DNA of 64,000 nt. Source: Takakia lepidozioides (taxonomy: Eukaryota > Plantae > Bryophyta). Shown piece after piece: positions 6,505 to 38,938 of this stretch (positions are counted from its first letter, which is position 1; every line of letters starts with the position of its first letter). The translations under genes were made by a program, and so were the position numbers. The notes beneath the pieces were generated by a model, which saw only the letters and a list, made by a program, of their open reading frames with translations, had not been told where the DNA came from and did not search any database. The stretch lies in NCBI GenBank assembly GCA_030704615.1, contig CM060732.1:80042001-80106000 (forward strand), read 5' to 3'.

Positions 6505-6730
6505 TGGACTCATGCACAGTCTCCCAACGGACTCCTCCAGTCTCCACAATCCCAGCACACTCCGGCACAAACTCCCATCAGACGGCTGCAGAGTCCCACA
6601 ATGGACTCCTTCACAGTCTCCCAACGGACTCCTCCAGTCTCCTAACTGACTCCCACACAGTCTCCCAAGCATATTCTCCCAACGGACTCACGCACAGTCT
6701 CCCAACAGAGTCACAGTCAACAGACTCCGA
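6505..6730. repeat. Degenerate tandem repeats built on CACAGTCTCCCAACGGACTC, between the convergent MULE genes
   Basis: The unit is seen at ~6515, ~6612, ~6656 and ~6693. Confidence 0.75.
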
Positions 6731-12890: not shown

Positions 12891-14973
12891 CGTTGCAGAA
12901 TGAAACGAGGGTGCAAGGACAATGAGCGACAGAAAAGACTCACCCTAAGCAATAAGAGGACACAGAACGGATGGAAACACCGTAGCAAGTGAGAACCTCA
13001 CCGAGCCGATGAACTTCGAGTTGTTACGAAGGCGAGCGTGTTTGCGACGCTTCGCGGCTCACCGCGACTCTCCACACCTAGGGAAGAACGGCCGTCTTTC
13101 GTTACAGTGATGGAAACGCAAAGAGGAAAACAAAACAATGCGAAGAAACAGGCGCGAAGAGAATGGAGTCGATCGCACAGGGAACATGAGAAGAAAGTAG
13201 AAGTAGATGGGGGAAAACGGACATGGCACTGCCAACGTGGCGCGATTTCACAGGCGCCAACTATCCACCGTCATCGCATTGAATACGTCCACCGAACGAA
13301 CGCATCGTACTAAATTCATCCACGGTCCTCGCACGTGCAGCAGACTCATTTCCCATCGGGCCGAGAGTCCACTGGACCGCCAGTCCAACGGACTTGCTGA
13401 GGCGAAGCGGCTTCATATTGGAGGCACTTCCTTGCCAGCGGAATGAAGACAAAAGAGAGTAAGGGGAGAACAGGAAAGTCGAACACACCCATTGCAAACA
13501 GACTCGCGGCACAACAGACTGATGCATGCACAGTCCAACAGACTGATATCCATAGAGGAGAACTGTCCAGCAGACAGACGTTTCGCCAGACTGGCGGGAG
13601 AACAAGCCAAAAGATTGACTGGAGGGAAAATAAGAAGCCAAACAGACTTAGTGCAACAGACTTCCGACACAACAGACTGACAAATTCACAAGTGCGACAG
13701 ACTGATATCCCAACAGATGGACTTCCAGCAGACCGCCTCCAAACTGACTGTTATGCACGCGATAAGGGGAATATCCGGAGCACTGGCGGGCCAGCGGACC
13801 CACTGTGAACAGACTCGCGACACAACGGACCTCAAACATCCACGCGCATTTGAAGATGCAATTGTCTCAGCCTGGTCCGTCTCCTGGCAAATGCGACAAT
13901 GTACCGATTCTGCACCTACTCCCGTCGTGGCTCAAACATCTGCATTCAGCAGGTGCGTGTGGATGTTTGAGGACCTTAGGACTGGATGGTGTTCCGTGAC
14001 GACTCAAATTGCTTTTTTGTGCTGCCATCCTTTATATAATACCATGTGGATCCATCACAAAGCTGGGTTTCTTCAGATTCTCCACCCTTTTGCACAATCT
14101 ATGCACGACGGATGCAAGCCGCTATACTTGGTCACATAAACAGTCCCATCGTCCGATACGAAATCTGCAATACACGCCCCCATGTGCATACGCTTCCGCC
14201 ATTTTCACGCCCATGTTACCCATGGGTTCCTTTAACGAACTAAACTTGTGAAGGCTCTCATGAGGGATGCAGTACGGAGGGGCTAAACGTATCATGACGG
14301 ATCACAAGTAGAGGACGTTATCGACGATAGATGTCCGCATTTTCCATATTTATGACATAGAACCAAACCATAAAACGAAGGTTCCCGAAAGCACAACAAG
14401 AAGGCAAAAATAGTGGAAGCATATGCACGATGGTGGCTGTAGTGCCGAGACAGTCCTCTCATGTTCAAGCACACGCTTCATCATCATCATGAACATCGCG
14501 TGCAAAAAAAGAACAGTCGCGTGTATGGAAACGCCTACCGCAACATCGGACAACAAACAGCCGTCAAAAGAGAGCGGTCGGGATTTGGTGGCAAGATCAT
14601 TGCCATTTTCGCAGCCCTAAAAATGGAGGGCTCTGTCGTGCGCATACATATCGCTACACAACTACATCGCTGTCCAAACCACACCACACATATATGCACA
14701 ATAAAGTAGTCTACCACAATCCCCTAGCTGGTGGATAGGTCCCTCTACCTCCAGATAGCTACAAGACGTAATAGCCATAGCCGTACTAAGTCCTCTATCA
14801 CTGTCCCTATCGTACTCAAACTCTATAGACCAAGAGGCCGGGTACAAGAGTAGCCCCATCGTTAGTCGCCGTCTTGCAATCTGTGAACTTGAGCCAGGAC
14901 TTCGTGTATTCAAGGTATCCTGTAGTTGGGCCTTGCGTTGCTTGTTAGCCTTCCATGGTTGTATCCACTCCCA

Positions 14974-15091
14974 CTATCCAATGCATTGTGGACATAACCA
15001 ATCCCCATCCGGAACCATCTCAAAAGGTGGAGTCAAGCATCCCATATGCCAACCTCTAGAGCATCGATCACACACCAGCATGGTGGCTGCC
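14974..15091 (-). pseudogene. C-terminal half of the PHD finger of the DNMT-bearing retroelement polyprotein
   Basis: Reads AATMLVCDRCSRGWHMGCLTPPFEMVPDGDWLCPQCIG* (TAG at 14974-14976). It is in frame with LRCMLCGSAKG at ~22064-22100 after removing the chromovirus and one TSD copy. Confidence 0.92.
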
Positions 15092-15815
15092 TGTCGCACA
15101 CCTCACTTCGGTAAACTCCCCTTCAAGTCATAGTTACTCGCTTTGATGCGCGCGCCTGACTCCCAACCTGGCCGCCAGGCCAACTTGGAGTTTCGGCTGC
15201 TCACCGGGACATAACGGTCCCCTTCCGCTTCCCTCTAAACCCTCCACCTATTTGGGACTAGGAGAATTCCCTTTGGTAGATGGCAGTCCGGAACAGCTCC
15301 CCACTCTTTGGTCGCTTTCCGGCTCGCTCGCTTACTCACTAGTTTTTGGTCACCAACGGGCTTGCACCGTTCTCGGGGTTACTACTCCCTATATATACTT
15401 CTGTAGCTGTCCGCGGGGGTTTCATAACCAGCCATGCCATTTTATGGCGAACCACCACGAAAACCCTCGACTCCCGGTGGTGAGTCGCGGTGAGTCTTGG
15501 CCCACTCACCGCGGCCCCAATGGACCGTGATGAGTCCCAAGACTCCCCACGACTCCCACCTCGAGGTCTCCACCCCATGGTGAGTCCTATGCCACCCCCA
15601 CTAAGTCCCACTAAGCTACCACCACCCCTTGTGGAGCCACCTCCACCGCAACCCGGTGTGCGGGGCTCCACCTAGTGAGCGCCTCCGCCTCCTTGAGTGC
15701 CTTGGGCACTCAAGGGTGCTTCAGCCCCCCATACCTATCGCCGCCGCTGCCCCCACCACAGGGGCAGCCCCTCATGTGTCCCGACCCCCTGCCCTCAAGG
15801 CAAAGGGCCGCGACA
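15092..15815 (-). repeat. 3' LTR of the chromovirus
   Basis: TGTCGCACAC...GGGCCGCGACA. Near-identical to 21340-22063 (two mismatches seen by eye). Confidence 0.97.
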
Positions 15816-15829
15816 CACACCCCTACCAA
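15816..15829 (-). promoter_or_regulatory. Putative polypurine tract
   Basis: The minus strand reads TTGGTAGGGGTGTG immediately before the 3' LTR. Confidence 0.55.
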
Positions 15830-16721
15830 CAGGGAGTCGATGTCCTCATCGACTTGTCCATTTTGTAGAAACGAACATCCAAGTTGTGGCGTCCCACATC
15901 AAGGAGTTTGTTTCCGTACCATGGCGTCCCATGGCAAAGAACCAAACCCCACACTTGACTCCACTCTCCACTAGCTAGTTCGGCCGACTTCCTCCAAGTC
16001 CCGGCCAAGGGTGGAGCCTCTCCAGCTCCTCCCAGTGCACTCTTCTTGGCCTACTTCAAGGCCAAGGAACGATCCTCCCCGAGGATCGAATCGCCTTACT
16101 GCAACAACATTGCTTGCGATCGCTCATGATGCCGCTTTTGGCATCACCTTGAGCAAGGGTTCACCTGAAACCCTCTTTGACTAGGAAGATAACCTTGAAC
16201 CAACCGTGCGCCCCAATCACTACAATTGGGTCCGCCTTGGAATGCTGGCCTGAGGTACGGGAACACGCCGAAGCCGCACTACGACTTCGTCCCGAGGCTA
16301 CACGATTATAGTACGTGAACGGAAGCACGTAGCTTCCGCGTTAGCCCGCACTACAAGGCAACCCCCTCGGTAGCGCAGTTATAGTACGCGCACGCGCCAG
16401 GTGCGCACTAGCACTTGAACTCCCAAATAAGGCGCAAGTTTCCTTGCCCCTTGGATGGGAGTCACCCGATTTCGGCACTGCGCAAACACACGATTAACCC
16501 AATTTACCTCTCCCACTTTTGTAAGCTAGCATGCATTCTACACACCAGCCAACCACACCATGCATCACCATTCCAAACACAATAGGACGCACAATATTTG
16601 GAACCCATTTCCTTTATCACAAATTTTTGTACAATACAAGTTTTTGCAATCGGATTCCTGAGCTAGCTAAACCGGGCTAAGCATGCATTTCCTCCCCCAC
16701 GCTCCAAGGTTGATGTCCCCA

Positions 16722-19700
16722 TCAACGCTTCTTCCGCTTTTGAGGTCGCCCTTCGAACGCTGCAACTGCCTCGGATGCGTTTCCCATTTCTGAGGCACGC
16801 ACCCAAGATGCCTCCACAAGATGATAGCCCTTCCATTTGACGAGATACTCCGTTTCTCGGTTCTTGAACCTCCTCGACTTAAGTATTGCCTCCACCTCGT
16901 ACTCGGGTTCATTTTCATGATCCAACAGCATAGGTGGCGGACGCAACACTTGCTGCCGATTCGGACGTGCTTCATCTTTGAAGTAAGGCTTCAAAAGGGA
17001 GACATGGAATACTGGGTGCACCTTGCTGTTTGCTGGCAGCTCCAATTCATACACATCCTCATTCATAACCCTCCGAATGCGAAAGGGACCCGCATACGGA
17101 GGTACGAACTTCGGACTCATTTCCGGAGGTAGTCGAAAATTCTTGATGTTCAACCAGACCTCTGTGCCTGCCTCAAACTTCACTTCCCTCCGCTTCCGAT
17201 TCGCCTGCCTTTCATACCGTTTCCTAGCTTTGGCAATGTTGTACTTTGCGAGCTTCAACAAACGCTCGCGTTCTTCCAGTACCGCCGCTACTGCCGGTTC
17301 CTCAACGTCCTGGGCGGCCCAACTTGTCGGCACCAGAGGTGCTTTTCCATAGACCAACACAAAAGGGGAAACTCCCGTCGCGGAGTGTTCTGTGTTATTA
17401 TAACAGAACTCTGCCGCGTCTAAGTGTTCCATCCAGTCTGATTGGTCTGCCGACACGTAATTCCGCAAGAATTGCTTCACTACGGAATTCACTCTTTCCG
17501 TTTGGCCGTCCGTCGTAGGTCGGAAGGCGGTGCTCATCTTCAGCCTCGTCCCCATCTTCTTCCAAAGTGCTCTCCAGAATTTACTCGTAAACTTTGGGTC
17601 GCGGTCCGAGACAATATCCTTCGGGACTCCATGATGCTTTAAGACGTGGGCGAAGTAAAGTCGCCCTGTCTCCTGCGCAGTTGCCGTCTCCTTGGTGGGG
17701 ATGAAATGGGCCATTTTACTGAACCTATCTACCACCACCATGATTGCATCGAATCCTTTTGACAGCGGCATAGCAGTCATGAAATCCATCGAGACGCTTT
17801 CCCAAGTCCCCTCTGGAATCGGCAAGGGTTGTAACAGCCCCGCTTGCTTTTTATACTCGCTCCGGTTTTGTTGGCATGTGGTGCATGTCTTTACATACTC
17901 CTCTGCCTCCTCCCTCAGTTTGGGCCAGAAATACTCTTTCTTCAAGAGTGCCGCAGTGCGCTTGGCTCCACCGTGGCCCGCAAGCGGGCTATCATGGCAT
18001 TCTCTCAAGAGACTATCCCTGATCCCTCCCTTTGGCACATAGAGACGTTTTTGCTTATACCGGAGCAGTCCGTTTTGCAAGTGGAACTGCGATTTAACCC
18101 CCATTCTCAAGTTCTGCATCACGCACTTTGCCAGCTCATCCTTCCGGCAAGCCTTCCGGATCTTCCTTTGGAGCGCCGTCTCGCCCTTGTACACCAACAA
18201 GAGCTGCTGCTTTCTACTTAAAGCATCGGCCACCACATTGTCCCGTCCCGGTTTGTACTGGATATCCACGTCGAACACTGCCAAAGTATCTTGCCACCTA
18301 AGTTGTTTTGGGGACAACTTGGGCTGCGTGGCAAAATACTTCACCGTGACATTGTCCGTGAACACCTTCACTGGGTTGGAACCAACATAGTGGCGCCAGA
18401 GTTCAAGGCAATGTACCACCGCCTTCATCTCTTTTTCGTGCGTCGGCCACCGTCGCTCCACTTCATTCAGTTTCTTACTTTCGTAAGCCACTGGACGTCC
18501 ATCTTGCATAAGTACACCCCCAATTGCGAAGTCCGATGCATCTGTATGAATCTCAAACGGACGATCGAACTCCGGGATTTTTAAGACTGGAGCTTCCGTC
18601 ATCCGCTGCTTCAATTCAGCAAAAGCTTGGCCACAAAATGTGTTCCATACCCAGACTTTGGATTTACACAGAAGGTCCGACAGCGGCCCCGCGATCTTGG
18701 CGAAATTTCTCACATACTTCCGGTAATAGGAGGCGAGTCCTAGGAAGGATCGCACTCCCGGGACCGAAGTCGGAGGCTCCCAGTCCAAGATCGCCCTCAC
18801 CTTTCTGTCATCCATTTTGATCCCATCCTGTGTAATCACGTGCCCCAAGAACTCCACTTTTGTGACCCCGAATTCGCACTTTGAAGCTTTGGCATACAGC
18901 TTCCCTTCTCGCAATTTTTGGAACACCCTTTTGAGGTGCTCCAGGTGCTCCTCCTTTGTTTTCGAGTACACCAAGATGTCGTCGATGTACACGATCACAA
19001 AGTCATCCAACCACTCCTGGAAAAGGCTGTTCATCAGCGTGCTAAATGTCGCTGGTGCATTGGTGAGCCCAAAAGGCATCACCAAGAACTCATATGAACC
19101 ATACCTTGTCCTGCACGCGGTCTTCTCCTCATCTCCTTCCGCCACCCGAATTTGGTGATAGCCGGAGCGCAAGTCGATCCGGCTGAAATACTTCGCTCCT
19201 GCCAACCGATCGAAGAGGTCGTCGATCCTTGGCAAAGGGTACCGGTTTTTGATAGTCACCTTATTCAGAGCCCTGTAATCGACACACATCCGCAGCGTCC
19301 CATCCTTCTTGTCTGCAAATAGCACCGGGGCTCCGTAAGGTGACTTACTCGGCCGGATGTACCCCTTTGACATTAGATCTTTGAGCTGAGTCTTCAGCTC
19401 GACCAACTCTTTGTGGCTCAACCGGTAGGGCGCCTTGGCAGGCGGTTCCGATCCCGGTATCACCTCAATTTTGTGGTCAACTCCTCTTCGCGGTGGCAAG
19501 CCGCTTGGTAAATCCTCCGGCATCACATCCTGGTATTTCTCCAAAATCCCCTTGATCCAATCTGGGCTCGGCTCCCCATCGCCTTCTCCTTTCACTTCTC
19601 TAATGTAAAGCAAAAACTGGGACTCGTGTGTCTCCTCCACGGCCCACTCCTTTGCTGATAGAAGGTTTATTCGCCCTCCCACGGATTTGGGCGTTTCCGA

Positions 19701-21284
19701 CACTCGTAAAACCTCGCCACCATTCCCACATGGCAGCGTGACTACTCTCTTGCGGCCATCTATGACCGCTCCGGATTTGCTCAAAAAGGTCATTCCCAAA
19801 ATGAGATCCACTCCATCGATCTCGCAGATAGTGAAGTTCTCACGTCCCTCCCAACTCCCCAGTTGAAGAGGAACATCAAACGCCAACCTTGTCGCCAACT
19901 GAGGTTCTCCTTTGGCAGAGCGCACCTCAATAGAGGCCCCCACGTCACTTGTCGGGAGTCCCAACTTTCGCGCCGCCGCCGGCGTCATGAAGGAGTGCGA
20001 CGCTCCTGTGTCCACCAACAACGACACATTAGTTCCGGATATTATCCCATCCACGAACAATAACTGACTCCCTTTTCGTAAGGCGCCAGTTTCCTGATAC
20101 AACTCACAAGAAAATTTGCCTACCTTGCAAGTCCTGGCGACCACCGCTTCCACCAAGCGACTGATGGTATCTTCCGACAGCTCCGTGGTCGCCCGAGTCA
20201 TGTTCAATTGCCGGGGCTTCGTGCACTTCTTGGCCATGTGCCCGGGCTCCCCGCAATTGAAACACACTCCATCAAAGGTCGCCTTCTGTCCGCCATAAGT
20301 CGCTCCACCCGCTTTTCCTTTCGAAGCACCGGGTGCCGCCTTGACGTGTGAAGGACCTCCCTTCGATTTCCACGTGCCATTTTCGCCGCGTGGCCTATCC
20401 CACTTCTTTTCCGGTCGGGAGGAGTCACCTTCCCGCCGGGTCTTCTTGTGGTTCAGCTCCGTACGGCCTTGTCTCTCACCCCTAGGGACATCCGAGAAAC
20501 ATTCAGCTCTCTCAATTGCCTCGTTCAAAGTCTTGGGTGGCTTCTCCTCCAACTTCCGCCTAGCCCATGGGGCCAGTCCCGCCACAAAGTTGAAGACCAT
20601 TTCTGGTTCTGCCATGTCCGCGACTTCGAGCAACAGCACATTGAAAGCCTGGACATACCCCCGAATGTCATCTGTTTGCTTCAAATTCCTCATCTTGTCC
20701 CGGGCAAGCCAGGATGCGTTGAGGGGCACAAACTGTCTCTTCATCAATTCCTTGAACTCACTCCAGTTCAAGGTTTCCGGGCTTGGGCCTCGGTCGTGAA
20801 GGCGTTTCTGCCACCATTGTTGAGCATAGCCCCTCAAATAGGTGGGAGCCACTTCCACCCGATCCTCGTCACTCAACTTGGCCGCCCGGAAGTACTGCTC
20901 TAGCTCCAGGAGCCAGGTGTTGAGTGCCTTCCGGTTTCGAACGCCCTCGAAGGTGCCGGGTTCCTTAGGCTTCACCTTAAACTTTGCCTTGGTGGAAGTG
21001 GCATTAGCCGCCTTCAACACGTCTTTCAACGTCCCGCCAAACTGCGCCAACAACCCTTCCCAAAAGGCTGCCGGCATGGGAGGCATCTCTTGGTTTGTCG
21101 GAGCTCTCAAAGATTCCTCGGGCTCCGACTCCTCGGATTCCTCCCGCTCCTGAGCGGCCTCGTTTTCGGAAACATTAATCGCTTCCTCAAACGGCCGCCT
21201 CGGTGACACGTCGCCCCCATCGGGCTCACCGGGATCATCATCTTTTGGGCCGTTCCGCTTTCGCTTCGGCTTGCCCGACCCCAT
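16722..21284 (-). CDS. Gag-Pol polyprotein (capsid, CCHC knuckle, protease, RT, RNase H, integrase, chromodomain)
   Basis: [14 protein letters not shown]; [11 protein letters not shown]; MPFGLTNAP and YIDD; TDASD; H-H-C-C and D,D(35)E integrase; YEVEAIL...YLVKWKGY...SW chromodomain. The likely start is MGSGKP at ~21284, because the listed ORF start (21347) overlaps the LTR/PBS. Confidence 0.96.
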
Positions 21285-21325
21285 GATGAGGCCAATCCCA
21301 AGGACGATCGCGTACTGAACTCTAA

Positions 21326-21337
21326 GCTCTGATACCA
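21326..21337 (-). promoter_or_regulatory. Primer binding site (tRNA-iMet)
   Basis: Minus strand TGGTATCAGAGC, 2 nt after the 5' LTR. Confidence 0.93.
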
Positions 21338-21339
21338 AG

Positions 21340-22063
21340 TGTCGCACACCTCACTTCGGTAAACTCCCCTTCAAGTCATAGTTACTCGCTTTGATGCGCG
21401 CGCCTGACTCCCAACCTGGCCGCCGGGCCAACTTGGAGTTTCGGCTGCTCACCGGGACATAACGGTCCCCTTCCGCTTCCCTCTAAACCCTCCACCTATT
21501 TGGGACTAGGAGAATTCCCTTTGGTAGATGGCAGTCCGGAACAGCTCCCCACTCTTTGGTCGCTTTCCGGCTCGCTCGCTTACTCACTAGTTTTTGGTCA
21601 CCAACGGGCTTGCACCGTTCTCGGGGTTACTACTCCCTATATATACTTCTGTAGCTGTCCGCGGGGGTTTCATAACCAGCCATGCCATTTTATGGCGAAC
21701 CACCACGAAAACCCTCGACTCCCGGTGGTGAGTCGCGGTGAGTCTTGGCCCACTCACCGCGGCCCCAATGGACCGTGATGAGTCCCAAGACTCCCCACGA
21801 CTCCCACCTCGAGGTCTCCACCCCATGGTGAGTCCTATGCCACCCCCACTAAGTCCCACTAAGCTACCACCACCCCTTGTGGAGCCACCTCCACCGCAAC
21901 CCGGTGTGCGGGGCTCCACCTAGTGAGCGCCTCCGCCTCCTTGAGTGCCTTGGGCACTCAAGGGTGCTTCAGCCCCCCATACCTATCGCCGCCGCTGCCC
22001 CCACCACAGGGGCAGCCCCTCATGTGTCCCGACCCCCTGCCCTCAAGGCAAAGGGCCGCAACA
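21340..22063 (-). repeat. 5' LTR of the chromovirus
   Basis: TGTCGCACAC...GGGCCGCAACA, a direct repeat of 15092-15815. Confidence 0.97.
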
Positions 22064-23999
22064 CTGCCCCTTTAGCAGACCCACACAACATGCACCTCAA
22101 ACCAGCAGATACCACTGCCAGGTTTGGGTCAATCCTGCCATCGACATTCGGAAGGTGACATGGCGCACAATTACGCACATGGTCCTTCCAAGTTATGCCA
22201 TCCCGACCCTCCAAGACCAAGACGCCTGAGGGCAAGACCTCTCGAACCCTCAAAATAACACGTCCTGCAGTCACATCCAGGGTCGTAGGAGTAGTCTGCT
22301 GCAGATAGACATAGTCACCAGGGTTGAATCTCCGAACCCCAGGACGATAGCCCCCACCACGTATGGTAGCATACCTCAACGTATCACGGTGTTGTGCAAT
22401 GGCAAGGTTCTCGAAAGCCATGGGCATGACTCTCTTGAACAACTCTGCACGCTGCTCACATGCACGTGCCCACACGTCCGGATCGTCAAGGTTAAGAACT
22501 GTAGCAGCTTCTCTGCGAATGGATGTAGGCAAATCCGGCTCTCGGCCAAAGAGAAGAAAGTATGGTGAGAAGGAGGCAAGTGATGCTTGCTTGCTGAACC
22601 TGTAGCCCATGGCTAACCAGGGTAACTGAAGGTCCTAATCTCCTAGGTGTCCCTTCTGCAAGCCATACTTGCGCAAACCCCTCTTTACTGTCTGAACAAC
22701 TCTCTCTGCCAAGCCATCGGCCTCAGGATGATCCCGAGAAGTGGTGCGGTGGTCTATCAAGGCCTTGTCACACAAAGCCTGAAACTCCCCCAAGAACTCT
22801 CTCCCTTGGTCCGTGAGTACCTCAGCTGGAGCACCGAATCGGCTAAGCACACAATCCAGGAATGCATACGCAGCTCCCTCACTAGCCTTATCAGGCAATG
22901 GAACCAATTCAATCCACTTGGAGAAGTGCTCCACCATCACCAACACGTACTTGTTGTGGCGCATGGTCAGTGGCAACGGCCCTGCGAAGTCAAGACTCCA
23001 CCTGTAGCCCAATCCCATGATCGGAAGAGGGTGTAATTGTGGAGTAGGGGCGTTGAATGAAGCACGCACCCTGTCACACACCATGCACCTAGCCACAAAT
23101 TGTTGCACCTCTGTGTGCATACCACGCCACCAATACTGCCCCTGCAGTAGACTATGAGTGCGTCGCACCCCAAAATGCCCCAACTCCTCATGGGCATGCC
23201 GCACTAACCGTGCCCGCTGTGTTGGGTGAGGCACAATCCTCACTCGACCATCCTCCCACACTCGGAGCAGGTGTGTCCCCTCCCACCTGAACCTCTTGGC
23301 TCGTTGTAGGATCCGATCCCTCTCCTTGGCAGTCATAGTGGCTGCCGTGTCTCCACTGCGGAGGTAGTCCAACACAACTGAATCCTCATGTATATCTTTG
23401 GCGCCACCCTGCTCATTGCTGGCCTCAGGGTCCTCAGACACTTGATCTACAGTCATCCCTGTTGTAGGTCCAACCTGGCCTTCCGCTGCCAAGATACACA
23501 GAAATGCAGATGCATGCCATCCGGGCACCATCTCCTCGTCCGTCTCACCATGCCACCGAGCTCCAGTGTCATCCTGCTGGCTCGTGCATGGATTGCGACT
23601 CAACCCATCTGCATTTCGATTGACCAAACCCGGTCGATGCACCACCTGAAAGTCATACTCTTGAAGGATGAGTGCCCACCGTGCAAGCTTCCCCGTAAGC
23701 TTGTCTGACTCCATCAACCACTTGAGTGGTTGGTGATCCGTGACAAGGGTGAAGAGATTGCCGTATAGATAGCACCTGAAGTGTGCCACGGCCCACACTG
23801 CAGCTAAGCATTCTCCCTCATATGAGCTATACTTAGACTCTGCAGCATTGTTCGAGCGGCTAGCATAAGCCACTACGAACTCTCTTCCCTCATCATCCAC
23901 CTGTGTGAGCACCGCTCCAAGCCCCAGCATGCTCCAATCTGTATGCAGCTGAAAAGGACGCCCCCTGATAGGTCGTCTCAAGATGGGCGCCGAGGTCAA
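22064..23999 (-). pseudogene. RNase H + integrase + start of the PHD finger (DNMT retroelement pol)
   Basis: FQLHTDWS...YASR...ECLAAVWA...TDHQPL...NADGLSR (RNase H). HAHEELGHFG...CMVC, SLDFAGP, LTDQGREF, GLAERVV (integrase). A TAG at 22635-22637 replaces the W of DWD, and the next ORF continues in the same frame. Confidence 0.93.
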
Positions 24000-24990
24000 C
24001 CTCGCCTTGAGCTCTTGAAAGCTTGTTCTTGCTCATCTTCCCACTGCCACTCCTGGTCCACCTTGGTCAGCTTGGTTAGAGCCTTTGCAATGGCACTAAA
24101 TCCCTTAACAAACCGTCTGTAATAGTTTGCTAACCCCATGAAAGCTCGAACTCGGCTCACATCCGTGGGGCGTGGAACCTGTGCAATGGACTCTACCTTA
24201 GTCTGCTGTACCCCAATCCTCCAGGATATATCATGTGACCCAGATACTCAATCTGGTTGTGGAAAAACTTGCACTTGCCCGGATGTAACTTCAATCCGTG
24301 CGTCCTCAAGCGCTCAAATACCCCCTGAAGGTGTCTCTCATGCTCCTCCACCGTAGCACTAAAGATGATGATGTCATCTATGTAGCACCGAGCAAACTCC
24401 ACCCCTGCTAGAATCCTGTCCATGACTCTTTGAAACTCAGCGGGAGCGTTTTTAAGCCCAAATGGTAAGAACCGCCACTGGTATAGGCAATCCTTCCCGT
24501 GCTCATTGATCCCCCAGAATGCCGTCTTTTGCTTATCCGCCTCCTTGATCGGCAACTGGTGATATCCGGATCGTAAATCCAACGTGCTAAAGACCTTGGA
24601 ATGCCCAATGGCATCAAAGATCTCCTCTGGTGTCGGCATGGCATACCTATCGGACTTGGTCTGACGATTTACAGGCCGGTAATCACCGCACATACGTCTC
24701 TCCGTCCAATTGCCATAGACATCCTTCTTAGCTGGCATCACTGTGGCTGAAGCATACTCTCCACCAGAGAGCTCCACCAAACCTGCCTCCCAGAGATCTT
24801 GAGTCCTCATCTGAATCAAAGACCTCTCCATGTCACTGTATCTATAGGGTCTCCGAAAGATTGGCGTGTCAGTGGCCAACTCAATACGGATCTCTTGACC
24901 CTTCAGTGCTCCCAAGTCCTTCAAACTGAAGGCAAAGCAATTCCTGTAAGCCCTCAGGAACCGCCGTATACGTCGTCTCTCTCCTCCGGT
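24000..24990 (-). pseudogene. Reverse transcriptase (DNMT retroelement pol)
   Basis: [54 protein letters not shown]. Frameshifts near 24200 and 24020. Confidence 0.95.
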
Positions 24991-25379
24991 GACAATGGGT
25001 CCAATGTCAGGCTCCCAATTGTCCTCCGTAACTGCAACCTTAAGTCCAGTGGGCTTAGAGGTAGAGGACGCGTCCCGTGGTTGCTATGCTGCAACCTCTT
25101 GAGCAGTACTCCCTTCCTGCTCAGTCAATGACAAGGCCTCATCCTGCCCCATCATCTCATCATTGAGAACCTCCTCATCCCGAGAAGAATCCCCAACCTC
25201 ATCCATCACAGCTGCCTTGGCTGCCAACTCCCTCTGAACCTCGAGCACCTCCCACGTGTGCCATGGATGTCTACACCCCGTGGTCCTCACCGGCTCGCCC
25301 CCACTCGCTGCCTGTACCGTCTCGGTAGGCAGAGAGACCATCAAGGGAAGTGCACTCCGCACTCTACGTTGCTCAGCCA

Positions 25380-26330
25380 TAGCCAAGCTGACAATCCAGG
25401 TCAAGCAATTGAGATCCATTGCTTGCCCCAACACCTGACGACGTGATGCTTCAGAAAGAGAAGGCACCGCCGTGGTCCCAGTGGAAAACCCCATAGCCCG
25501 CTCTCTCGCTCGTCGGCATTAGGCTCCACTAACTGCTGCAACTGAGCATCCCACAGGAGGCCAGGTCCACCATCCCGAAAAGCATGGGATCCTGGGAAGC
25601 TGAGCAGTGTAGGTAATGCTGCTCGTGGGTGACCCACCCTGTTGACCACTGCCAACGGCGAACGGTCATATGTCTCACATGTTGAGACTGCCTCACTGTG
25701 TCCAAATGCCATCCACGGTGAGGTGTGTGGCGCTGCACCCCATCAAATGCACGCTTGAGCAGTGCGGGTGGCATCAAGTTAGTCCACCAAAGCCGTGGAC
25801 GATGAGCCCGTGACCCCACTGCAGCTGCATCCAGCAACACTGCTGACCCAAGCCACGACCGGACTTGATGCACACTGGCCATCACCCTGGCCCGAGAATC
25901 ACCCATCAGTGGCACATTCTCCAAGATGTATGCGGAGATACAGCTTGATGAAGCTGCAAGTGGCGCAAAATCCGCACCATCTCCCAAAACAGACCCGTCC
26001 TCGAGTCTCGCAATCCATTGCCATGCCCGGCTGATGAATGCCCTTGGCAGGGCCAACCTGCCACTACCAGATCAATGGAGCCAACCCGCTCCAAATCCTG
26101 CGCCCCCAGCAACGCAATGTCTGCTGGCAAGGCCTGCTGATATCCACGAACTGCAGACACCGGCAACAACTCAGGTACTGCTGCACCATCTGAGCAACAT
26201 GGCGCAGTGAGACGCGTCGTGCAGTCTCATCCCTCTCCACATACAGGTAACGTCGAACTCGTACACCTGCCTGCAGCACTGCAGCCAATCCAGTGCTGAT
26301 CCCGCCAAACAAGTCCAGAAGGCATATGCC
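25380..26330 (-). pseudogene. DNMT3-like DNA (cytosine-5)-methyltransferase domain embedded between protease and RT
   Basis: Motifs appear in canonical order across frameshifts. I: LLDLFGGISTG. II: YVERD. IV: DLVVAGWPCQG (catalytic PC, ~26041-26070). V: GLFWEMVRIL. VI: YILENV (~25913-25930). VIII: DAAAVGSRAHRPRLWWTNL. IX: EPNADERE..MGF. X: RRQVLGQAMDL. Confidence 0.92.
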
Positions 26331-26722
26331 TTCATCCGGCCGCTGCCACACAAGAGGTGTGGTATCCAATGGCGACAACTGAGGTGGTCCTGGTGCAATA
26401 CCCGCACTCTCCTCCTCTCCTGACGGAACAAAACCTCTGAAAGCCACCTGACTTTCCTGAACCGCTTGCTGCCTCTACCCTTGTTGTACCCGTCAATCAG
26501 CAACCTGCTGCAAATCCTTGCTCGTACCCCACAATGGAGTGTGAGCAACCATGGCAGGCAACTCCGCCATACCATGCATGTCATCCTGCTCTGCTGGAGG
26601 TGGCACATCCTCTGCATGGGCATTGCCTTCCAGCAACTCTCCAGGCCAACTAACTGCAGCTGTAAAGGCGGCTAGTGTTGGCATCTTGCCCCGCTGGGCA
26701 GCCGCTATACCCCCAATGAATG

Positions 26723-27200
26723 TCACAGGGAGCTGTGCACGGCGACCATCCCTGACTGCCATCCAGGCCTGTAGGATGCTGACTCCTCCCAAAAGTCCAG
26801 GGTGAAGCCCATGGGGTATAACACTGCCCCACCAACGAGGACATCGTAAGAGACCGCGTCTGTCACAATGGCCTTGGCTCGCATCACTGAGCCATCTATA
26901 GGATGATCCGGCTGCAGTCTAATGGCCAACTGATGCCGTGTCATGCCCCGAGCCTGCTCTGATCCTCCCAGAGATGTCTGTATCTGGAAAGGACAAGGCT
27001 CCATATCCGCCTCCATGAGGCCCAAACCTGCAATAGCAGCTCTGCCCAACATCAGTGGCTGAGCTCCCGAGTCCAACAAGACCCGCAGTGGCCGGTACTT
27101 CTTGCCTGCCGGTCCACTCAAAGAGAAAATGCCATCCTGGTTGTCTAACAAGACAACTCCAGGTGTCACCATGGCGCGCTCAAAGGCTGGCCTAGCTGGC
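26723..27200 (-). pseudogene. Retropepsin-like aspartic protease
   Basis: RVLLDSGAQPLMLG ... YDVLVGGAVL. Confidence 0.85.
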
Positions 27201-27853
27201 AGCTCCGTCAACCTGGCAGCTGCAGCTTGCCATGGCGCAGCCGTGGCAGTCTTGACCCTCAAATCCGAGGATCCCTCTGCCACTACACCTTCCACTAACT
27301 CCGCAGAAGATGAAGTGACCTCCCCACTCTCACAGAGTGTTGCTGCTAGTCTGAACACTGCAGCTGGTCTCACCCCGGCGTCGCAATCATTGTTGCCGAG
27401 AACAGTGGGGCTTGACACACAGAGGTGGCTGCCCCCAATAACACACCGGCCGCACTAGCCTTGGCAGCAGGAGTCAGTGCTGCACGTGTAGCTCTCCCCA
27501 ATGGCATAGTAACCTCCGCCTCGGTAACAGTCGGGCGAGAACTAGGTGCCATGGATGGCGTCGACACAGTCTCTCGCCAATGTGAATGACTGAGGAAGCC
27601 TCGCCTGACGGCTTGCCTCCCCACGCTGTGGATCCAATTCCACCTCTGCACCTCGTGGCTCAGGAACTCGTGCTGCTCCTCGAGTCACGGCTGCAGCAGA
27701 CTCCACCTGCTCTAGTGGTAGTGCTGCTGCTCCGCACATGAATCCCATGCCTCCCATATCTCCTCCCTCAGTACAGGAGTGTGACCATCCCGCCTGGGAG
27801 CCGGTCCCACCCACCCCACGCCTGAGCTATAGCCATGGCAGCGAGCCGCTGCT

Positions 27854-29305
27854 CTAGCTGCTGAAGCCGATTGGCCATGCCTTGGTCAACACCCTGACCT
27901 CCGCGTCCTTGGCCATGTGGAGCTTGCCTTGGCCTGCACCTCGTGCCCGACCACCTCGTCCTCTTTGGGCTGGTCCACCTCGCCCCCGGCCACCATTGTT
28001 CCCTTGGAACTGGCCTGGGCGCAACTCAGGATGCAAGTCATAACACTGGGCATCTCCATGCCCATACTTGCCACAATGCCCACATTGCAAGTGTGCAGGC
28101 TGTGCTTGTGCCGGCCTTTTGCTACTCTCTGGGCAATCTCTCTTGACATGGGGTCCTCCACATGTCCAACATATCACCCCTGGTTTTGTTGGCCTGCAAA
28201 AGATGCCACGGGCCTCTGCACCTGAGGTCCCCTGTAAGCTCCATGGAACTTGGGCTGGGCAACCTTGCCCCCCTGACCACGCTGTTGGGCAGTCCCTTGT
28301 GCCTGTGGACTGACAGCTGGCGCCCCGTGCAGGCATGTCCTTACCAAATCCAATTGTAACAACTCGCTCCTCCACCATGTTGAGCTCAATCCGCTCAGTC
28401 AGCAGAAACACATCTGCTAATGTGGGTTGGGCTGCTTGTAACAGGGTTGCATCTCGCACCCTTCTCTTGAGCTCCTTGTCCAGAATTCCATACCAAACTG
28501 GATTGCCTGAGCTTCAGTAACCCCTTGGGTCACACTTATCAAGCGCCTCATACGAGTGTACGCCTCTCGCAGGCTCTCACTGGGTTTGCGCTGGAAGTCT
28601 TGCAAACTTCGCAGCTTCTCTGTCCGTACACCTTGGTAGTTCCTCCTCCGCAACTCCTGGAAGAACTCCACCACCGGGTTGAATCTAGGCACATGTGTTG
28701 TAGTCGTGGCAGGAGGAGTAGTAGCACTTTTGAACTGGTACCACCTACAGAAGTACCACACTACTTGCTCCACTACTAGTGCTGGCAGTGGGAGCTATTG
28801 GTACTGATGCAGCTACTGGTCGCGTCGTGCCTCGAGTAATGGAGACGTAGTCAGGTGACCAATACATCCTCCACTCCTCAATCTCTGCTTCATGTCCTCG
28901 CCTGAACTCGTGGCAATCGTCCATAGGCGGGCCTTCCAAATGCTGGAACAGTCCCTTCCACGCCATGAATGGGGTGAATAGCTGTGGATTGCGCATCTGC
29001 TGCAAATCACACCAGCTGTCGAACTCCTGGATAAAGTCATCCAACTCGATTGTGCCCACAGCTCCAGAGTACCTACGAGGCCCCTTGGTAGCTCCATACA
29101 TCTCCTCCATGTCGTCCCACAACAATGGCGAATGAAAGTGCACACCTGTTGATGAAGCCTCCGAGTCTGTGTCTGACTCTACAGTAATTGAGGGTGGCGG
29201 TGAAGGTGGTCTGAACCGAATACCTCGTCTTGTGAACCCACTCTCACTGTTACTGCCGTAGTAGCCGTACCCCCTCAAAACCCTTGGGTAACTCCGTAAT
29301 GACAC
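27854..29305 (-). pseudogene. Gag (capsid plus two zinc knuckles), frameshifted
   Basis: RYSG...LDDFIQEF; FQRKPSESLREAYTRMRRL (major homology region-like); CWTCGGPHVKRDC and CGHCGKYGHGDAQC; RGG-rich tail. Confidence 0.85.
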
Positions 29306-29846
29306 TCACAATGTGCACCTCCTCCACGTGACACTATAAGGCTCTAGTACTAATTCTAATAGTGACACGGGTGGGCACCTGTTGCAGTTTAAGGGTCATA
29401 TCCCAATGGCTCAGGGCACCTGCACCTGCATCCACCGCAAGAACTCCTATGGTTGGCTGGTCATCAACCCAGCCTCACCATAGAAGAAACACTAGTGGTC
29501 TTGCTGGTCATCACTCCAGCCTCACCACCGACAGCATACTCTAGGATTGACCGGTGATCAAATCCGGCCTAATCCCTATGAAAGCAAGCGCCCACACAAA
29601 ACCAACATGGCGCACAGTCAAGCATGCAGGTGTTGGGGGGGATCCAAACACAAGAAATGAAAACATCAACACCCCCACACCAAAATCCAGCTGCAATGCT
29701 GATCCTGCAGAATATCCCAGCCCAAAACCCCGGACTGACTGGCCTCCACCAAGAGAGGCTTTGGCAACTACGAGTACAAGGTAATGAAAATAGTACAGAG
29801 ATGAAGGGAAGAATAGAAGCCCGACCAAGCAAGATCTAATCCTGAT

Positions 29847-30596
29847 CTATGCTATCAACTGCCAGACTTCTCTCAAAGTGCCTCGCTCTGCATGATGGTA
29901 AGGTGTAGGAGGTATATCTATGTCCAGAAACCTGCCACTAACCTTGTCCCAAGCTACAGTAGCTCGCTCTAACCAACCCTCCTCCTCTTTCTGCCAGGTA
30001 GAGACAAAGCAATACTCCCCTATCTCCCGCTCACTGAACACTAAAGAAAACAAAGGTAGGGTCTGATAGTCTCTCAACTCGAAAGCTTTGAGACGGTTGC
30101 GGGTGTCCTCATTGCGAATGACTGCATCTCCTTCAAGCACAACAAACATGTCATTGCTGATGAACCCCCGCTCGTGGTTGCCCTGTGCAGAGCGTATCCG
30201 GCTGCAACCATGTCTGATTGCACAAACTTGTGTAGCTCCTGCTCCTCTGCTCCAGTACACCACGGCCTTGTGGCTGAACACCTTGGTCCCCGGGGCTGTC
30301 TTTGGCTGTGTTCCAAGCCTAGCTTTCACCCACTTTGGTATTTCACCTACAGCTGCAGAACTGCTGGCTCCAACAGAGTTCTGACTGTCCAAGGCGATAT
30401 TGAGGCCCTCAATGCCAACTACAACAGTCTGTTGTCTACTGCTAATGCCTGACTCCCAGTATGCAATCAACTCGTCCAACTGTTCTCCACTCAAATCAGT
30501 CTGAGTTCCTTGGGAAACATAAATCCTGTCCCCTTGTGTGCACAGACTAAGAGAAGAGACCTGCCCTTCAATTACGTCCTCATTTCCCCCAGCCAT
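29847..30596 (-). CDS. Unknown 249-aa protein upstream of gag, same strand
   Basis: ATG-started uninterrupted ORF with globular-protein composition. No family was recognised with confidence. Confidence 0.5.
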   Translation of the reverse strand: MAGGNEDVIEGQVSSLSLCTQGDRIYVSQGTQTDLSGEQLDELIAYWESGISSRQQTVVVGIEGLNIALDSQNSVGASSSAAVGEIPKWVKARLGTQPKTAPGTKVFSHKAVVYWSRGAGATQVCAIRHGCSRIRSAQGNHERGFISNDMFVVLEGDAVIRNEDTRNRLKAFELRDYQTLPLFSLVFSEREIGEYCFVSTWQKEEEGWLERATVAWDKVSGRFLDIDIPPTPYHHAERGTLREVWQLIA

Positions 30597-31188
30597 GCAA
30601 GGAGTACATCCACCAATTTGTCTCTCATATAGACCAGCACAGGTTCTAGAGACAGGATTGTGGATCTTTCATAGCACACTCACACTCTAAAAATTCCATA
30701 GATTTTTAGCAGAGTCCCAAAAACAAAAACCAGATAGGTAGATAGGTAGATATCCCCTTTCTGCAGCTATCCCCTCAAAAACTGAGTCAAACGGAGCTCA
30801 TTTGACAAAGATATGACCAACCAGGCTCTTTAAACATTTAAATTAGATCAAAAGGCCCCTTTTTTTTTTTCTTTTTAATTTTTTTTTTTAATACTTGTCT
30901 AGGTTCCCTGTTCCCTGGTTATCTACGGGTTCCCGAGGCCGTTCCCCGACTATGCTGACTCCGGGTCTTTGCTCTCACGGGGCTTCATGTTCGCCATCGC
31001 CCAGGGAGAGATAGAGGCAAGGCGGACGCAGACGAGGGCAGCGATGGCCAAGCCTGCGCGAGCAAGCAGGAACAAGGAGGTGGTGTGGGGTTTTGGCCGA
31101 TTCGGCCGATCAAAGACCTGATCAAAGGGTTGCGCATGAGCAGCTTTGCATGCTCGTCAATCTTCAAAGCCATGCAGCAGAGATGCCT

Positions 31189-31268
31189 GCTCCTGGTTCT
31201 GCTCCGTCAGCTCCTACCAGCTCCTGGTTCTGCTCAGTCAGCTCCTACCAGCTCCTGGTTCTGCTCAG
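31189..31268. repeat. 31-bp tandem repeat, about 2.6 copies
   Basis: GCTCCTGGTTCTGCTC(C/A)GTCAGCTCCTACCA. Confidence 0.9.
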
Positions 31269-31809
31269 CCCTTCCCAGCCCTTGCTCTCAAAGGTTGTCC
31301 ACTCAACCTCTCTCAAGCTGACCCCAAGTCTACCTGCATCACTCCCATGATTTACAGGCGACTTCCCTCCCCTTCATTTCTTGTCACGGCAAATGACGGC
31401 ATCAATATGGAATCCTTATGGATAACTGCAAATGACATTGATATCTTCATGGCGAAAAATCCAATTGACAACAGCCCAATCCCTACTTTCCGCACTAAGA
31501 TTGACAATTTCGAGCACGACTCGCACATCTGTCTCTTCACCCTCATGCTGGGATCACATGGGGGGCTTTCATTGAAGACTGTCTTCCTCTACCAGGTTGT
31601 TCGATGGGAGACAAATGTCGGGGCGACCCTGCCTGTGGGTTCTGGTGGCCTTCGTGGCATGGATGGGGAGCACCTGCGCTGAGATCGACTCCACCTACCC
31701 TGACGAGCCTGTCAATACTGATTTCGACAACTGTTGAGCTACATTGCGGAGACATCTGACCAAGACGACGTTCCTACTTCGGAGAGCAATGCACTAGCGT
31801 TGTCTGCTG

Positions 31810-32035
31810 GATTTTCAAGCGCAGTTCAAGCGGTCATTTGCCCGGCAATATCTATCACATTCAGGGGGGATGGTATGTTCAACACCATCATTTCTTGGAA
31901 CGACACTGCAGGTGTTTTTGATGACCAAGACGTGCTTCTGAAGACCTTCGGTTCACTGACTGCACAGAAGAAGAACGAATCTCGCATGGACACTGGTTTT
32001 TCTTTCGTGGATTGCTCTGTTTTTGGAACTGGCCT
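31810..32035 (+). pseudogene. Internally deleted pectin methylesterase fragments
   Basis: ITFRGDGMFNTIISWNDTA and GSLTAQKKNESRMDTGFSFVDCSVFGTG are PME signature segments that normally lie much further apart. Confidence 0.75.
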
Positions 32036-32059
32036 GGAGCACTTGTTTTGAAGAACCCA

Positions 32060-32500
32060 TGCACTCCACCAGCCTGCGTAATGCCTCACGATGTGCGCTC
32101 ATATCTTTGCTACCAAATCCTTCACCTTCTTCTCCCCTTCTGAAGGCCTCTTGTGCCTCTTGAAACAACGTCTTGACGTTGCTGGCAGCTTCACTTGTCT
32201 TCTCCTGACTGGTTTGCGCAGCGTCTGATATGGTGGAACGGAAATCCTTGCTAGCACCCTTCGGTGGAGTTTTTGGCCTTACCAACGTTACTCTCAGTAC
32301 CCTTCTTGGCATCGGATGTGGAGCCAAGGACAGCTTCTTTCAGATTCTTAGCCTGCTGTCGGATAGTCGAGCCAAGATTCTCTGCCTGGTCGGTACCATC
32401 CTCCAGATTTCTCTTGCTGGTGCAGGCAGCAGAATCAGCTCGATTCTTCAGATCAGCTAACGCCTTCCCTGCCTACGGCGGTGCACGGCTCTCATCCAGC
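32060..32500 (-). pseudogene. LEA-like hydrophilic protein fragment (frameshifted)
   Basis: A/K/E/T/S-rich helical sequence: LADLKNRADSAA...QQAKNLKEAVLG / SDAAQTSQEKTSEAASNVK. Frameshift near 32255. Confidence 0.4.
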
Positions 32501-32915
32501 CAAGCAGTCAGCAGCGCAGCCTACACACCCCACTCTTAGATATATCCACAGGTTGACAGAAAATCGCAACAACATCTCAAGCCTCCTGTTCTGATCCCTG
32601 TGACCAAGCTATATTATCATAGTGCTTAAAAAACAAAAACATAATATCTAGCTTAGCACTGGAAAACTAGATAGAGTGATCTCTCTCGAGTGATAAACAA
32701 ACCAACGAACACACTTGGAAAACCAAACCATCATCACTCTTTGAAATAGTAGTCGAGCCAGGGGCACCCCAAGCTATGGGGACTCCACCCCACAACAACC
32801 TACACTCCCATCATAAGCACACTCATATCTGAAGCGATGAAGGAGCTCGGTCACACAGGCTCAACTCGAGAGAGATGAGCCGCGCGACTGCCGCTCTCGT
32901 GAAGATAAGACGGAC

Positions 32916-32987
32916 CAGGTGTCAAACTAAACTTGACACCTGATTTAACACTTGCCCTAAATCCAAGTGTTAAATACAAAAAACTAG
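32916..32987 (+). mobile_element. Double hairpin plus CTAG: putative Helitron 3' terminus
   Basis: CAGGTGTCAA-7nt-TTGACACCTG (32916-32942) and ATTTAACACTTG-9nt-CAAGTGTTAAAT (32943-32975), then 8 nt and CTAG|T. Confidence 0.5.
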
Positions 32988-33064
32988 TTTTATGCTAGCT
33001 GTTTTCATACTGTGCTTATTTAACTTGACAGCTCGGATGGGTTATGGGAATGGACGGTGGCGAT

Positions 33065-36763: not shown

Positions 36764-38938
36764 TCAGTTGTTTCTCCTCCCCAATTTGAAACGGAGTACA
36801 ACGTAGCAGAGGATCCGGTAGAGAAGTGCAAAGCCTGCCATGATGCCTGCGTTAACCCACTTCATGCTTGCCTCGTGGAATCCTCCTTGAACCAGCACGT
36901 CCTTGCCAGTCAATGAGCAAAGGCCGCCACCAAAGAGCACCGGCCCAAAGCACTTTTCGCTGACATGAGTATACTCGTTGATCAGCAAAGCCTCCAGTGG
37001 ATACTTGTAGAGAGAGACGTAATGCATAAAAACCCAATACTTCGGAAGGTCGTCTTTGGATATGAAAAAGCCAGAGAAGAGGAAAAATGAGCCCATCAAT
37101 CCCATGATGATAGAGTACCCCAACTGATAATTAGGCACCAGAGCACTGAAAAAGGCAACAAAGGTGTAGGCAGTAACAAGGAGCAGCCAAATAACCAGAC
37201 AGAAGAAGAGGAAGGCACTAATCTCAGGCGCTAATCCCACCAACCAATACACAGGTCCCGAAAACAGTAGAGCAGTCAAAAACAAGAATGGGAGAAACAC
37301 TATGGTATTTGAAAGTACATAAGATGACATGCGATAAGACCCTCTTGATGTTTCACGGGTCAGGACTTGGCACTCTTCGAGGAAATTCGGGAGGACTTCA
37401 ATAGAGGATGAGAGCAGGAGGGTGACACTGAAAGCCAGAAACCCATAGCGTTCCGAATATCCACGCGTTCCGTAACCCATGTGGAAATAGATGCTGCCTA
37501 ATCCAATGCCTGCCCCCAGTGCATGCAGTGTTCTTGCTCTGAAGAGCTGTTTCGTCCGCAAGATATTCCTGCAAAATCGATGAGCTAGGACAAGAATCTC
37601 CTGTGAGCTTGAATTGGCGAAGGTGACTTGATCGACTTTCTGTAGCCGTCTTGCAGCGTCGTAGCCCAGTGGGAGCGGCGATGCACTCTCCACATCAAAC
37701 ATGTATTGCAGTGACTTGACTGGAACACTTGGGTCAGCCTTCCCAGGGAACATCTGGCAACTACAATCCGCTTCCAGATAATCGATGACATCAATGGCGT
37801 ATTCCAGCACATTGACCTGTTCCGGGATGAAGTGACCTGAAGCAGATAGTCGATTTGAGAGAGTCTCAAGAGATCCATAGTGAACAACGGTTCCTTGTGC
37901 CAGTAACAGAATGGAGTGGAGGAGTTCCAGTATCCGAAATCCAGGCTGATGAATACTGAGGATGATTGTGCGCCCATGTGAGACGGCCATATTCCGGAGC
38001 ATGGCCACCACATGCATTGCTGATGCACTGTCGAGGCCCGAGGTTGGTTCATCCAGGATCAAAACTGCAGGATCATGTATGACATCGACACCGATGGATA
38101 CCCGTCGTCGCTCTCCGCCGGACAACCCACGCAGAGTTTGGTTCCCTACCCGGGAGTTGGCCACATGCAGCAAGCCGAGCTCCTCCATGAGAGCCTGCAC
38201 TCGAGCTACTTTCTCTGCCATCGGCACAGATGCTGGAAGTCGCAACCGGGCACTGTACATCAACGTTTCCTCTACTGTAAGCATGGGGAAGAGCACATCG
38301 TGCTGCATGACATACCCCGATATTCTCAAAAACTGCTGTGTCTCCATCTGTTGCCGGTTAACTAAAATGCTGCTGGGCGGGCTGCTAGGCCTGAGGCGAC
38401 CGGCCAGCACCTCAAGGAGAGTGGACTTACCTGCACCACTGGGTCCAGCAACCGCCAATATCTCCCCGGGACGAGCTGTGCAGCTCACATGTTTCAACAC
38501 ATAGTGGGTTGTTGGTTTGCACCTGCCAAACACAGCGTCTACATTGATCCCCAGTACTGGAAAGTTCGAAGTATCCCTCCGCTTGACGATCTTGTATGAC
38601 AAGTCCTTGAGCTCAATCTCGTAAGTGTTGATACGCGACGGCGATGGTGGCAACGGGTTTGGCAGCACTGCCACCGGCGAGTACACAACATGAGGCAGCT
38701 TCGTATTGGCAGGTCCCTCCCGGGCCACCTTGATCCCCCCCACTGCGCAGGGACCTGGTTGAAGACAACAGCACACCTTCACACTGCAGGGCTTCCCCCG
38801 AGATGACCCCCTCGTGCTCTCAAGCTTCCCCGAGTCAGAGCCCATACTGAAACTCGCTTGCAGCCCACAGTTCACAGCAACAAGGAAACCACACAATGCG
38901 GTGCTCACTGCAGCATTGGAGGCATGCAGAGAGTCCAC
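36764..38938 (-). CDS. ABC transporter G family half-transporter (NBD-TMD, intronless ABCG5/10/23-like type)
   Basis: Walker A GPSGAGKST, signature LSGGE, Walker B ILDEPTSGLD, H-loop SIHQP, and a C-terminal ABC2 membrane domain. The start may be the downstream Met (~38845). Confidence 0.95.
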   Translation of the reverse strand: MDSLHASNAAVSTALCGFLVAVNCGLQASFSMGSDSGKLESTRGSSRGKPCSVKVCCCLQPGPCAVGGIKVAREGPANTKLPHVVYSPVAVLPNPLPPSPSRINTYEIELKDLSYKIVKRRDTSNFPVLGINVDAVFGRCKPTTHYVLKHVSCTARPGEILAVAGPSGAGKSTLLEVLAGRLRPSSPPSSILVNRQQMETQQFLRISGYVMQHDVLFPMLTVEETLMYSARLRLPASVPMAEKVARVQALMEELGLLHVANSRVGNQTLRGLSGGERRRVSIGVDVIHDPAVLILDEPTSGLDSASAMHVVAMLRNMAVSHGRTIILSIHQPGFRILELLHSILLLAQGTVVHYGSLETLSNRLSASGHFIPEQVNVLEYAIDVIDYLEADCSCQMFPGKADPSVPVKSLQYMFDVESASPLPLGYDAARRLQKVDQVTFANSSSQEILVLAHRFCRNILRTKQLFRARTLHALGAGIGLGSIYFHMGYGTRGYSERYGFLAFSVTLLLSSSIEVLPNFLEECQVLTRETSRGSYRMSSYVLSNTIVFLPFLFLTALLFSGPVYWLVGLAPEISAFLFFCLVIWLLLVTAYTFVAFFSALVPNYQLGYSIIMGLMGSFFLFSGFFISKDDLPKYWVFMHYVSLYKYPLEALLINEYTHVSEKCFGPVLFGGGLCSLTGKDVLVQGGFHEASMKWVNAGIMAGFALLYRILCYVVLRFKLGRRNN

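Follow-up and report, generated by a model that had tools for sequence, protein, structure and literature searches.

The closest described system is KnitGypsy-Dnmt3 of the alga Klebsormidium nitens, which combines Gypsy domains, a Dnmt3 domain in Pol and DIRS-like repeats in the order A-coding-B-A-B; in the accessible part of that report it is treated as having been acquired within the K. nitens lineage, in a survey that covered Physcomitrella and Selaginella (PMC5890265). The same part describes two dinoflagellate retrotransposon Dnmt3 domains that methylated CG de novo in yeast, and a Klebsormidium domain that gave no methylation there, a result its authors deem inconclusive (PMC5890265). 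According to the accessible part of PMC6338049, land plants such as tracheophytes lack Dnmt retrotransposons, and our literature search, which covered few subscription papers, returned no bryophyte DNMT retrotransposon, only those of algae and dinoflagellates. Methylation is the main host weapon against retrotransposons, and the difficulty of working with the known hosts has left the question of why some of them carry the enzyme unsettled from 2018 on.

We describe here an element of this kind in Takakia lepidozioides, from a 64,000-nt stretch of DNA (the window; GCA_030704615.1, CM060732.1, 80,042,001-80,106,000, forward strand), whose own positions are used below. Compared by description rather than by sequence, it shares with KnitGypsy-Dnmt3 the Gypsy domain set and an intronless, unpermuted Dnmt3-like domain, and differs in host (a land plant rather than an alga) and in layout: KnitGypsy-Dnmt3 has its DNMT in the Pol ORF, whereas the bryophyte family has it in frame with RT but separated from it by a conserved stop; the PHD finger, target-site duplications (TSDs) and A-coding-B form of the bryophyte family go unmentioned for KnitGypsy-Dnmt3 in the accessible text (PMC5890265). 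SymbioDIRS-Dnmt3 of Symbiodinium likewise joins a Dnmt3 domain in a retrotransposon to split repeats, but it has a tyrosine recombinase and its domain methylated CG in yeast, whereas the moss element has a DDE integrase and 4-bp TSDs (PMC5890265, as far as accessible). The family is real and conserved, and in our judgement it is very probably the branch of the KnitGypsy-Dnmt3 lineage found in land plants, differing from it in how its products are laid out for expression.

The Takakia element spans 14634-33030 on the minus strand, starts with TGTC, ends with GACA and is flanked by the 4-bp TSD GAGC; its 5′ end was located from the TSD and from host contigs, which run from 14633 into repeat A. 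Repeat A (32660-33030) starts with TGTC, the TSD lying just outside, and its CA end is set by likeness to relatives. There follow, all on this one strand, gag, broken into frame pieces and bearing two zinc-knuckle-like motifs (27857-29305; PF03732 at E 7e-4, below the cut-off, and alignment to the natural protein P0009), an aspartic protease (PR) with LDSGAQ (26750-27454; weak Pfam matches at E 0.014-0.021, and alignment to P0009), the DNMT3-like C5 cytosine methyltransferase (25400-26330), reverse transcriptase (RT) with YIDD (24196-25083; PF00078, E 3e-33), RNase H (23640-24032; PF17917, E 3e-36), and integrase with its H2C2, core and C-terminal parts, followed by the first half of a PHD finger (22064-23250; PF17921, PF00665). 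The second PHD half and the end of ORF2 lie at 14977-15090 (PF00628, E 1e-10), and a purine tract and repeat B, with the GACA end, at 14634-14734 (87% identity over 39 nt to repeat B of relatives, E 2e-7). The 5′ region holds an open frame of 273 codons (29850-30668, minus strand), which has high depth in host runs, no Pfam match and no Atlas match, and is absent from the best 80 of 160 related loci. Also in the 5′ region, a low-depth stretch at about 30860-32400 closes with a poly(A) run when read in the orientation of the element and contains a 31-bp tandem repeat (31186-31278); it is possibly an unrelated retroposed insertion.

The PHD finger is split by a nested chromovirus (15092-22063, minus strand; TSD CTGCC) with an unbroken 1542-codon gag-pol-chromodomain ORF and 724-bp LTRs that differ at 2 sites, a young insertion; contigs from all four of four host runs join across the site and so give the PHD form without it. 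The chromodomain in the window belongs to this chromovirus, and the DNMT element has the PHD finger instead. A PHD finger in a Gypsy polyprotein is shared by Gypsy-7a_cRei of Chlamydomonas, whose domain list, in the accessible text, is without a methyltransferase; REM1 is another PHD-bearing Gypsy element of Chlamydomonas cited there (both PMC9940879). Phygy and Selgy of REXdb, moss and lycophyte Gypsy non-chromoviruses, are likewise without a chromodomain, and the accessible main text of that source mentions neither a methyltransferase nor a homeodomain (PMC6317226).

Methyltransferase motifs I, II, IV, V, VI, VIII, IX and X are in unpermuted order at 26321-25417 on the minus strand, the strand of gag-pol, just as the initial annotation had read them: LLDLFGG (I, 26321-26301), YVERD (II, 26243-26229), GWPCQG (IV, 26058-26041), LFWEM (V, 25992-25978), YILENV (VI, 25930-25913), HRPRLWWTNL (VIII, 25804-25775), motif IX (within 25742-25476) and RRQVLGQAM (X, 25443-25417), all on the minus strand. 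The protease motif VLLDSGAQ (27082-27059) lies upstream and YIDD (24384-24373) downstream, so the proposed position between protease and RT holds, with a conserved TAG separating DNMT from RT. In the HMM search, PF00145 recognised the piece 25909-26226 with an E of 3e-11, a score that passes the Pfam cut-off; three other pieces of the DNMT region, scanned singly, gave no Pfam match, and the piece 25532-26071, searched alone against PDB, found no methyltransferase.

Frameshift-aware reconstruction was made against P0009, a natural unbroken Gag-PR-DNMT protein of 1329 aa, which aligns collinearly in five frame segments, that is, with four frameshifts, near 26175, 25933, 25670 and 25490 in the DNMT. 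The segment has no introns, because it is collinear with this unbroken protein, and the copy is dead, frameshifted and inactive as had been proposed. Against the relative P0001, 302 of 320 codons of the Takakia DNMT align, 230 of them identical, with zero stops, and all 11 motif residues checked, the catalytic ones included, are kept. The earlier assignment to DNMT3 rather than DRM is upheld through P0001, whose best sequence match is human DNMT3A (E 6e-12), DRM2 scoring far lower, and whose predicted fold (pLDDT 93.8, from 60 sequences) has DNMT3A as its best Foldseek match (E 2e-18); this modelled fold is that of a complete DNMT3 catalytic domain. The element domain thus has the fold and motif order of the host DNMT3 of mosses and animals, but is without PWWP/ADD or any other host companion domain and without introns; DRM, unlike it, is circularly permuted. 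From residues and fold, the domain of the family is predicted to be an active enzyme.

Scanning metagenomes with P0001 gave 205 stretches, 160 of which were confirmed as relatives, and the best 80 of these 160 were analysed; they form 64 clusters at 97%, are drawn from few metagenomes and are up to 92% identical to a Sphagnum protein. Among these best 80 of 160, the protease lies upstream of the DNMT in 47/57 loci with room for it (missing in 10), RT downstream in 52/61 (missing in 9), and the PHD finger after the integrase tail in 24/25; all eight parts are present in 11/80. No locus of the best 80 of 160 has the protease adjoining RT without a DNMT, a count from loci sampled by their DNMT that does not take in DNMT-less copies. 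Marchantia polymorpha supplies 15/53 of the matches among relatives, and Sphagnum, Calypogeia, Closterium, Scenedesmus and Cymbomonas are the other named sources; a search of viral contigs for relatives gave no match. Two variant proteins were seen, P0147 with a Tudor-like domain after the PHD finger and P0078 with a G-patch. In L054 (715-2060) the DNMT is followed almost directly by repeat B, RT to integrase being absent; this is possibly a non-autonomous form that keeps the methyltransferase.

Selection on the domain is purifying and like that on RT. Between Takakia and the main subfamily, the DNMT has pS 0.70, pN 0.20 and pN/pS 0.29 (dN/dS 0.11; 70 pairs) and RT pS 0.71, pN 0.18 and pN/pS 0.26 (dN/dS 0.10; 49 pairs), the dN/dS ratios being rough, since dS (about 2) approaches saturation and alignment ends that matched poorly were trimmed; integrase has pN/pS 0.17 (30 pairs). 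The dN/dS of the DNMT is 0.18 between subfamilies, and within the decaying main subfamily it rises to 0.61, with RT at 0.42. The 0.11 and 0.18 lie below the Ka/Ks of 0.2 used as the mark of purifying selection for KnitGypsy-Dnmt3 (PMC5890265, accessible part). Among the best 80 of 160 loci, the catalytic Cys is kept in 68/71 and the motif VI Glu in 74/77, and the two motif VIII arginines are less well kept (37/75 and 49/75), their losses presumably being mostly of the kind expected from decay of methylated-CG codons. Summed depth in host run X1 is 17,500-20,200 in DNMT bins and 16,900-19,700 in gag-PR bins, and far lower over 31077-32378; this pattern indicates a repeated family in the host, although depth is no copy number.

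These data bear on whether the Takakia copy took up, by one-off capture or insertion, a host DNMT3 gene. Mosses do have unpermuted DNMT3 genes (PMC6453930, seen in part), and the trees described below have no host DNMT3 placed in them; yet dozens of loci, as well as proteins of Marchantia and Sphagnum, have the domain at this same place, and it is without introns and under purifying selection, with congruent trees and a read depth like that of gag-PR. The probability of a one-off capture is virtually nil; it is refuted by the conserved DNMT position across lineages, and the DNMT is a conserved domain of the family.

Two layouts occur among the relatives: the DNMT lies before RT in bryophytes and Closterium, and between RNase H and integrase in Scenedesmus and others. 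Relatives with the second layout, which are of algal type and include P0131, P0169, P0092 and P0333, form their own clade (SH-aLRT 97 in both the RT and the DNMT tree), and therefore the domain changed its place in the polyprotein a single time. In quick trees the bryophyte-type rows group together as one clade, both for RT (11 rows, SH-aLRT 100) and for DNMT (17 rows, 99); the deep nodes of these trees are weak, and the trees are without K. nitens, Phygy or host DNMT3 sequences. The RT and DNMT trees agree, the two distance sets giving a Mantel r of 0.84 (34 rows; 0/2000 permutations). The initial annotation had left persistence from streptophyte algae and independent origin side by side; persistence is now favoured over independent origin, because the RT and DNMT trees agree and the ends of the relatives match KnitGypsy-Dnmt3. 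The DNMT was likely acquired once, early in green plants. As to origin only, the bryophyte elements might instead have arrived or spread by horizontal transfer, which we consider doubtful. DNMT identity is 73-75% between Marchantia and Sphagnum-like copies (P0296 vs P0002 and L014) and 69% between Takakia and Marchantia, whereas one host ABCG gene is only 52-54% identical between the liverwort and peat mosses, and the Takakia element falls outside the pair formed by the Marchantia and Sphagnum-like copies, all of which would suit transfer; yet synonymous sites between the Takakia and Sphagnum-like copies are saturated, several deep subfamilies coexist and would also yield such trees, and the comparison has a single host gene and weakly supported deep nodes.

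The initial annotation had the methyltransferase simply processed from Pol, and this does not hold for land plants, in which the DNMT ends a Gag-PR-DNMT ORF1 at a conserved stop before RT. In Takakia this stop is an in-frame TAG (25086-25084, minus strand) followed by CAA CCA, about 110 codons past motif X and about 20 before the RT similarity. In the alignment of related loci (from the best 80 of 160) a stop occupies the same codon in 46/50, as TAG in 33 and TAA in 13; one locus of the 50 has GAG and three, all of the second subfamily, are unaligned there. With near-identical loci merged the count is 41/44, and other codon columns, taken as a control, hold stops at fractions of at most 0.25 in the DNMT and 0.33 in RT (again best 80 of 160). 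Twenty natural proteins of the Gag-PR-DNMT type, one of them from Marchantia, end 88-157 residues past motif X, which together with the conserved stop argues that ORF1 of the bryophyte branch encodes Gag-PR-DNMT. DNMT and RT share one ORF in Closterium P0079 and in P0130, P0168 and P0329, and four Marchantia gene models also take in RT.

How RT, RNase H and integrase (RT-RH-INT) are made is read from these alignments. Readthrough of the stop is likely, because the frame is kept, the stop context is like the UAG-CAR-YYA readthrough signal, which we take TAG CAA CCA to resemble, and the first Met of the Takakia RT frame is residue 85, within the region similar to the RT of relatives. Counted against readthrough are the 13 of 46 stops that are TAA (best 80 of 160); a search for RNA structure behind the stop found none above shuffles (z -0.5 and -1.5). 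Reinitiation or a separate RNA for RT is possible, because an in-frame ATG lies three codons past the stop in Sphagnum-like copies. The conserved stop suggests that the enzyme is needed in large amounts.

The ends of the element are likewise unusual. No long repeat common to both ends was found in the Takakia copy, which has split A and B repeats instead of full LTRs; no tRNA primer site was found after repeat A (no TGG), and repeat A of relatives aligned to the Takakia 5′ region no better than shuffles. Relatives with a B end (20 from the best 80 of 160) have B-A-B in 7, B alone in 11 and a contig-end cut in 2, and the A-coding-B-A-B arrangement of KnitGypsy-Dnmt3 is thus matched by relatives, the Takakia copy itself being A-coding-B (PMC5890265, accessible part); B-only forms could also arise by recombination or assembly collapse. 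A 4-bp TSD flanks 6/6 loci that could be matched at both ends (representing 5 distinct insertions; best 80 of 160) and the Takakia copy; L019, with both ends present and its A start decayed, was left out of this count. The six distinct TSDs (GAGC, TACA, TGTG, TCTC, CATA and TGTT) include no NCGN, whereas Phygy prefers NCGN targets (PMC6317226, accessible part). The internal B|A junction is CA-NN-TG, commonest as the palindrome GACA-GC-TGTC, and the same junction occurs in host contigs. Such split ends hint that the element integrates by a route unusual for a DDE integrase.

We propose, with a probability of roughly 0.55, that a particle-borne DNMT, made with Gag, methylates the new DNA of the element before or at integration. 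Ribosomes would mostly stop after the DNMT, occasional readthrough giving RT-RH-INT-PHD; the DNMT would be packaged in the particle at near-Gag amounts, freed there by the protease, and would methylate the cDNA, probably at CG, so that the new copy arrives marked like host heterochromatin. The PHD finger may read histone H3 tails and steer integration. The integrase attachment site would be the palindromic B|A junction GACA-NN-TGTC, a one-repeat circle yielding A-coding-B and a two-repeat circle A-coding-B-A-B.

The enzyme might instead be active chiefly after integration, in the nucleus, or else in trans, methylating genomic copies of the element itself or of competing elements and so braking them, either as self-limitation or in competition. 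The ORF1 position, which predicts high DNMT abundance, would suit this; moss host DNMT3b methylates heterochromatin de novo at CG and CHH (PMC6453930), and a brake role has been raised before (PMC5890265), both sources being accessible in part. We nonetheless hold it to be unlikely, given that a domain scan recognised no targeting module for the DNMT in ORF1, that fusion to Gag-PR fits particle packaging better, and that the host already has de novo enzymes.

The CG values are 0.52 for the element, a barely depleted 0.90 for the nested chromovirus, 0.64-0.67 for host ORFs and 0.58 for the flanking transposon region, and CG depletion is not specific to the DNMT element. This fits a domain kept for DNA binding, for protection of cDNA ends or of the junction, or for methylation of RNA or of a single site such as B|A, as do the negative yeast result for the Klebsormidium domain (PMC5890265, accessible part) and the conservation of the unusual palindromic junction together with the domain; but the SAM-binding and catalytic residues are conserved and the predicted fold is a complete DNMT3 catalytic one, and we find such a role quite improbable.

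With methylation of incoming copies as the preferred reading, a wider one can be put forward tentatively, at somewhat less than even odds: an undescribed, green-plant-wide Gypsy lineage would have retained a DNMT3 from chlorophytes through to bryophytes, shifted it between two sites in the polyprotein, raised it to structural level through a readthrough stop in land plants, integrated circles opened at a palindromic junction and so delivered pre-methylated copies. If this is true, the model liverwort Marchantia harbours a retrotransposon that lays down the very mark by which it is silenced. Family members, such as Mp_4g09160 with an intact DNMT domain, are annotated as 'hypothetical' genes in Marchantia polymorpha, which makes the question of why elements carry the enzyme testable in a genetic model, and counts of DNMTs in bryophyte genomes include transposon domains.

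The flanking genes had been taken to be those of a land plant, and a single one of them, the ABCG gene (36767-38845), puts the host with the mosses: its best matches are in mosses, and in its tree, for which no named hornwort was sampled, it is sister to the sampled Sphagnum plus Bryopsida (100/99). Grouping it with lycophytes, ferns or liverworts was rejected (p-AU 0.003-0.007). An early-branching moss is the likeliest host, as opposed to a vascular plant. Host genes within 36767-62359 comprise this intronless ABCG transporter, a cytochrome P450 in exons and a BTB-like ORF, together with exons that, by eye, presumably belong to a SET/TPR protein and a CCR4-like nuclease. On the other side of the element, 5773-14600 is a transposon-like region, probably Mutator-like, with an Ulp1 protease (PF02902) and a SWIM-like Cys motif that has no Pfam match; the insertion of the DNMT element lies either within this region or at its edge.
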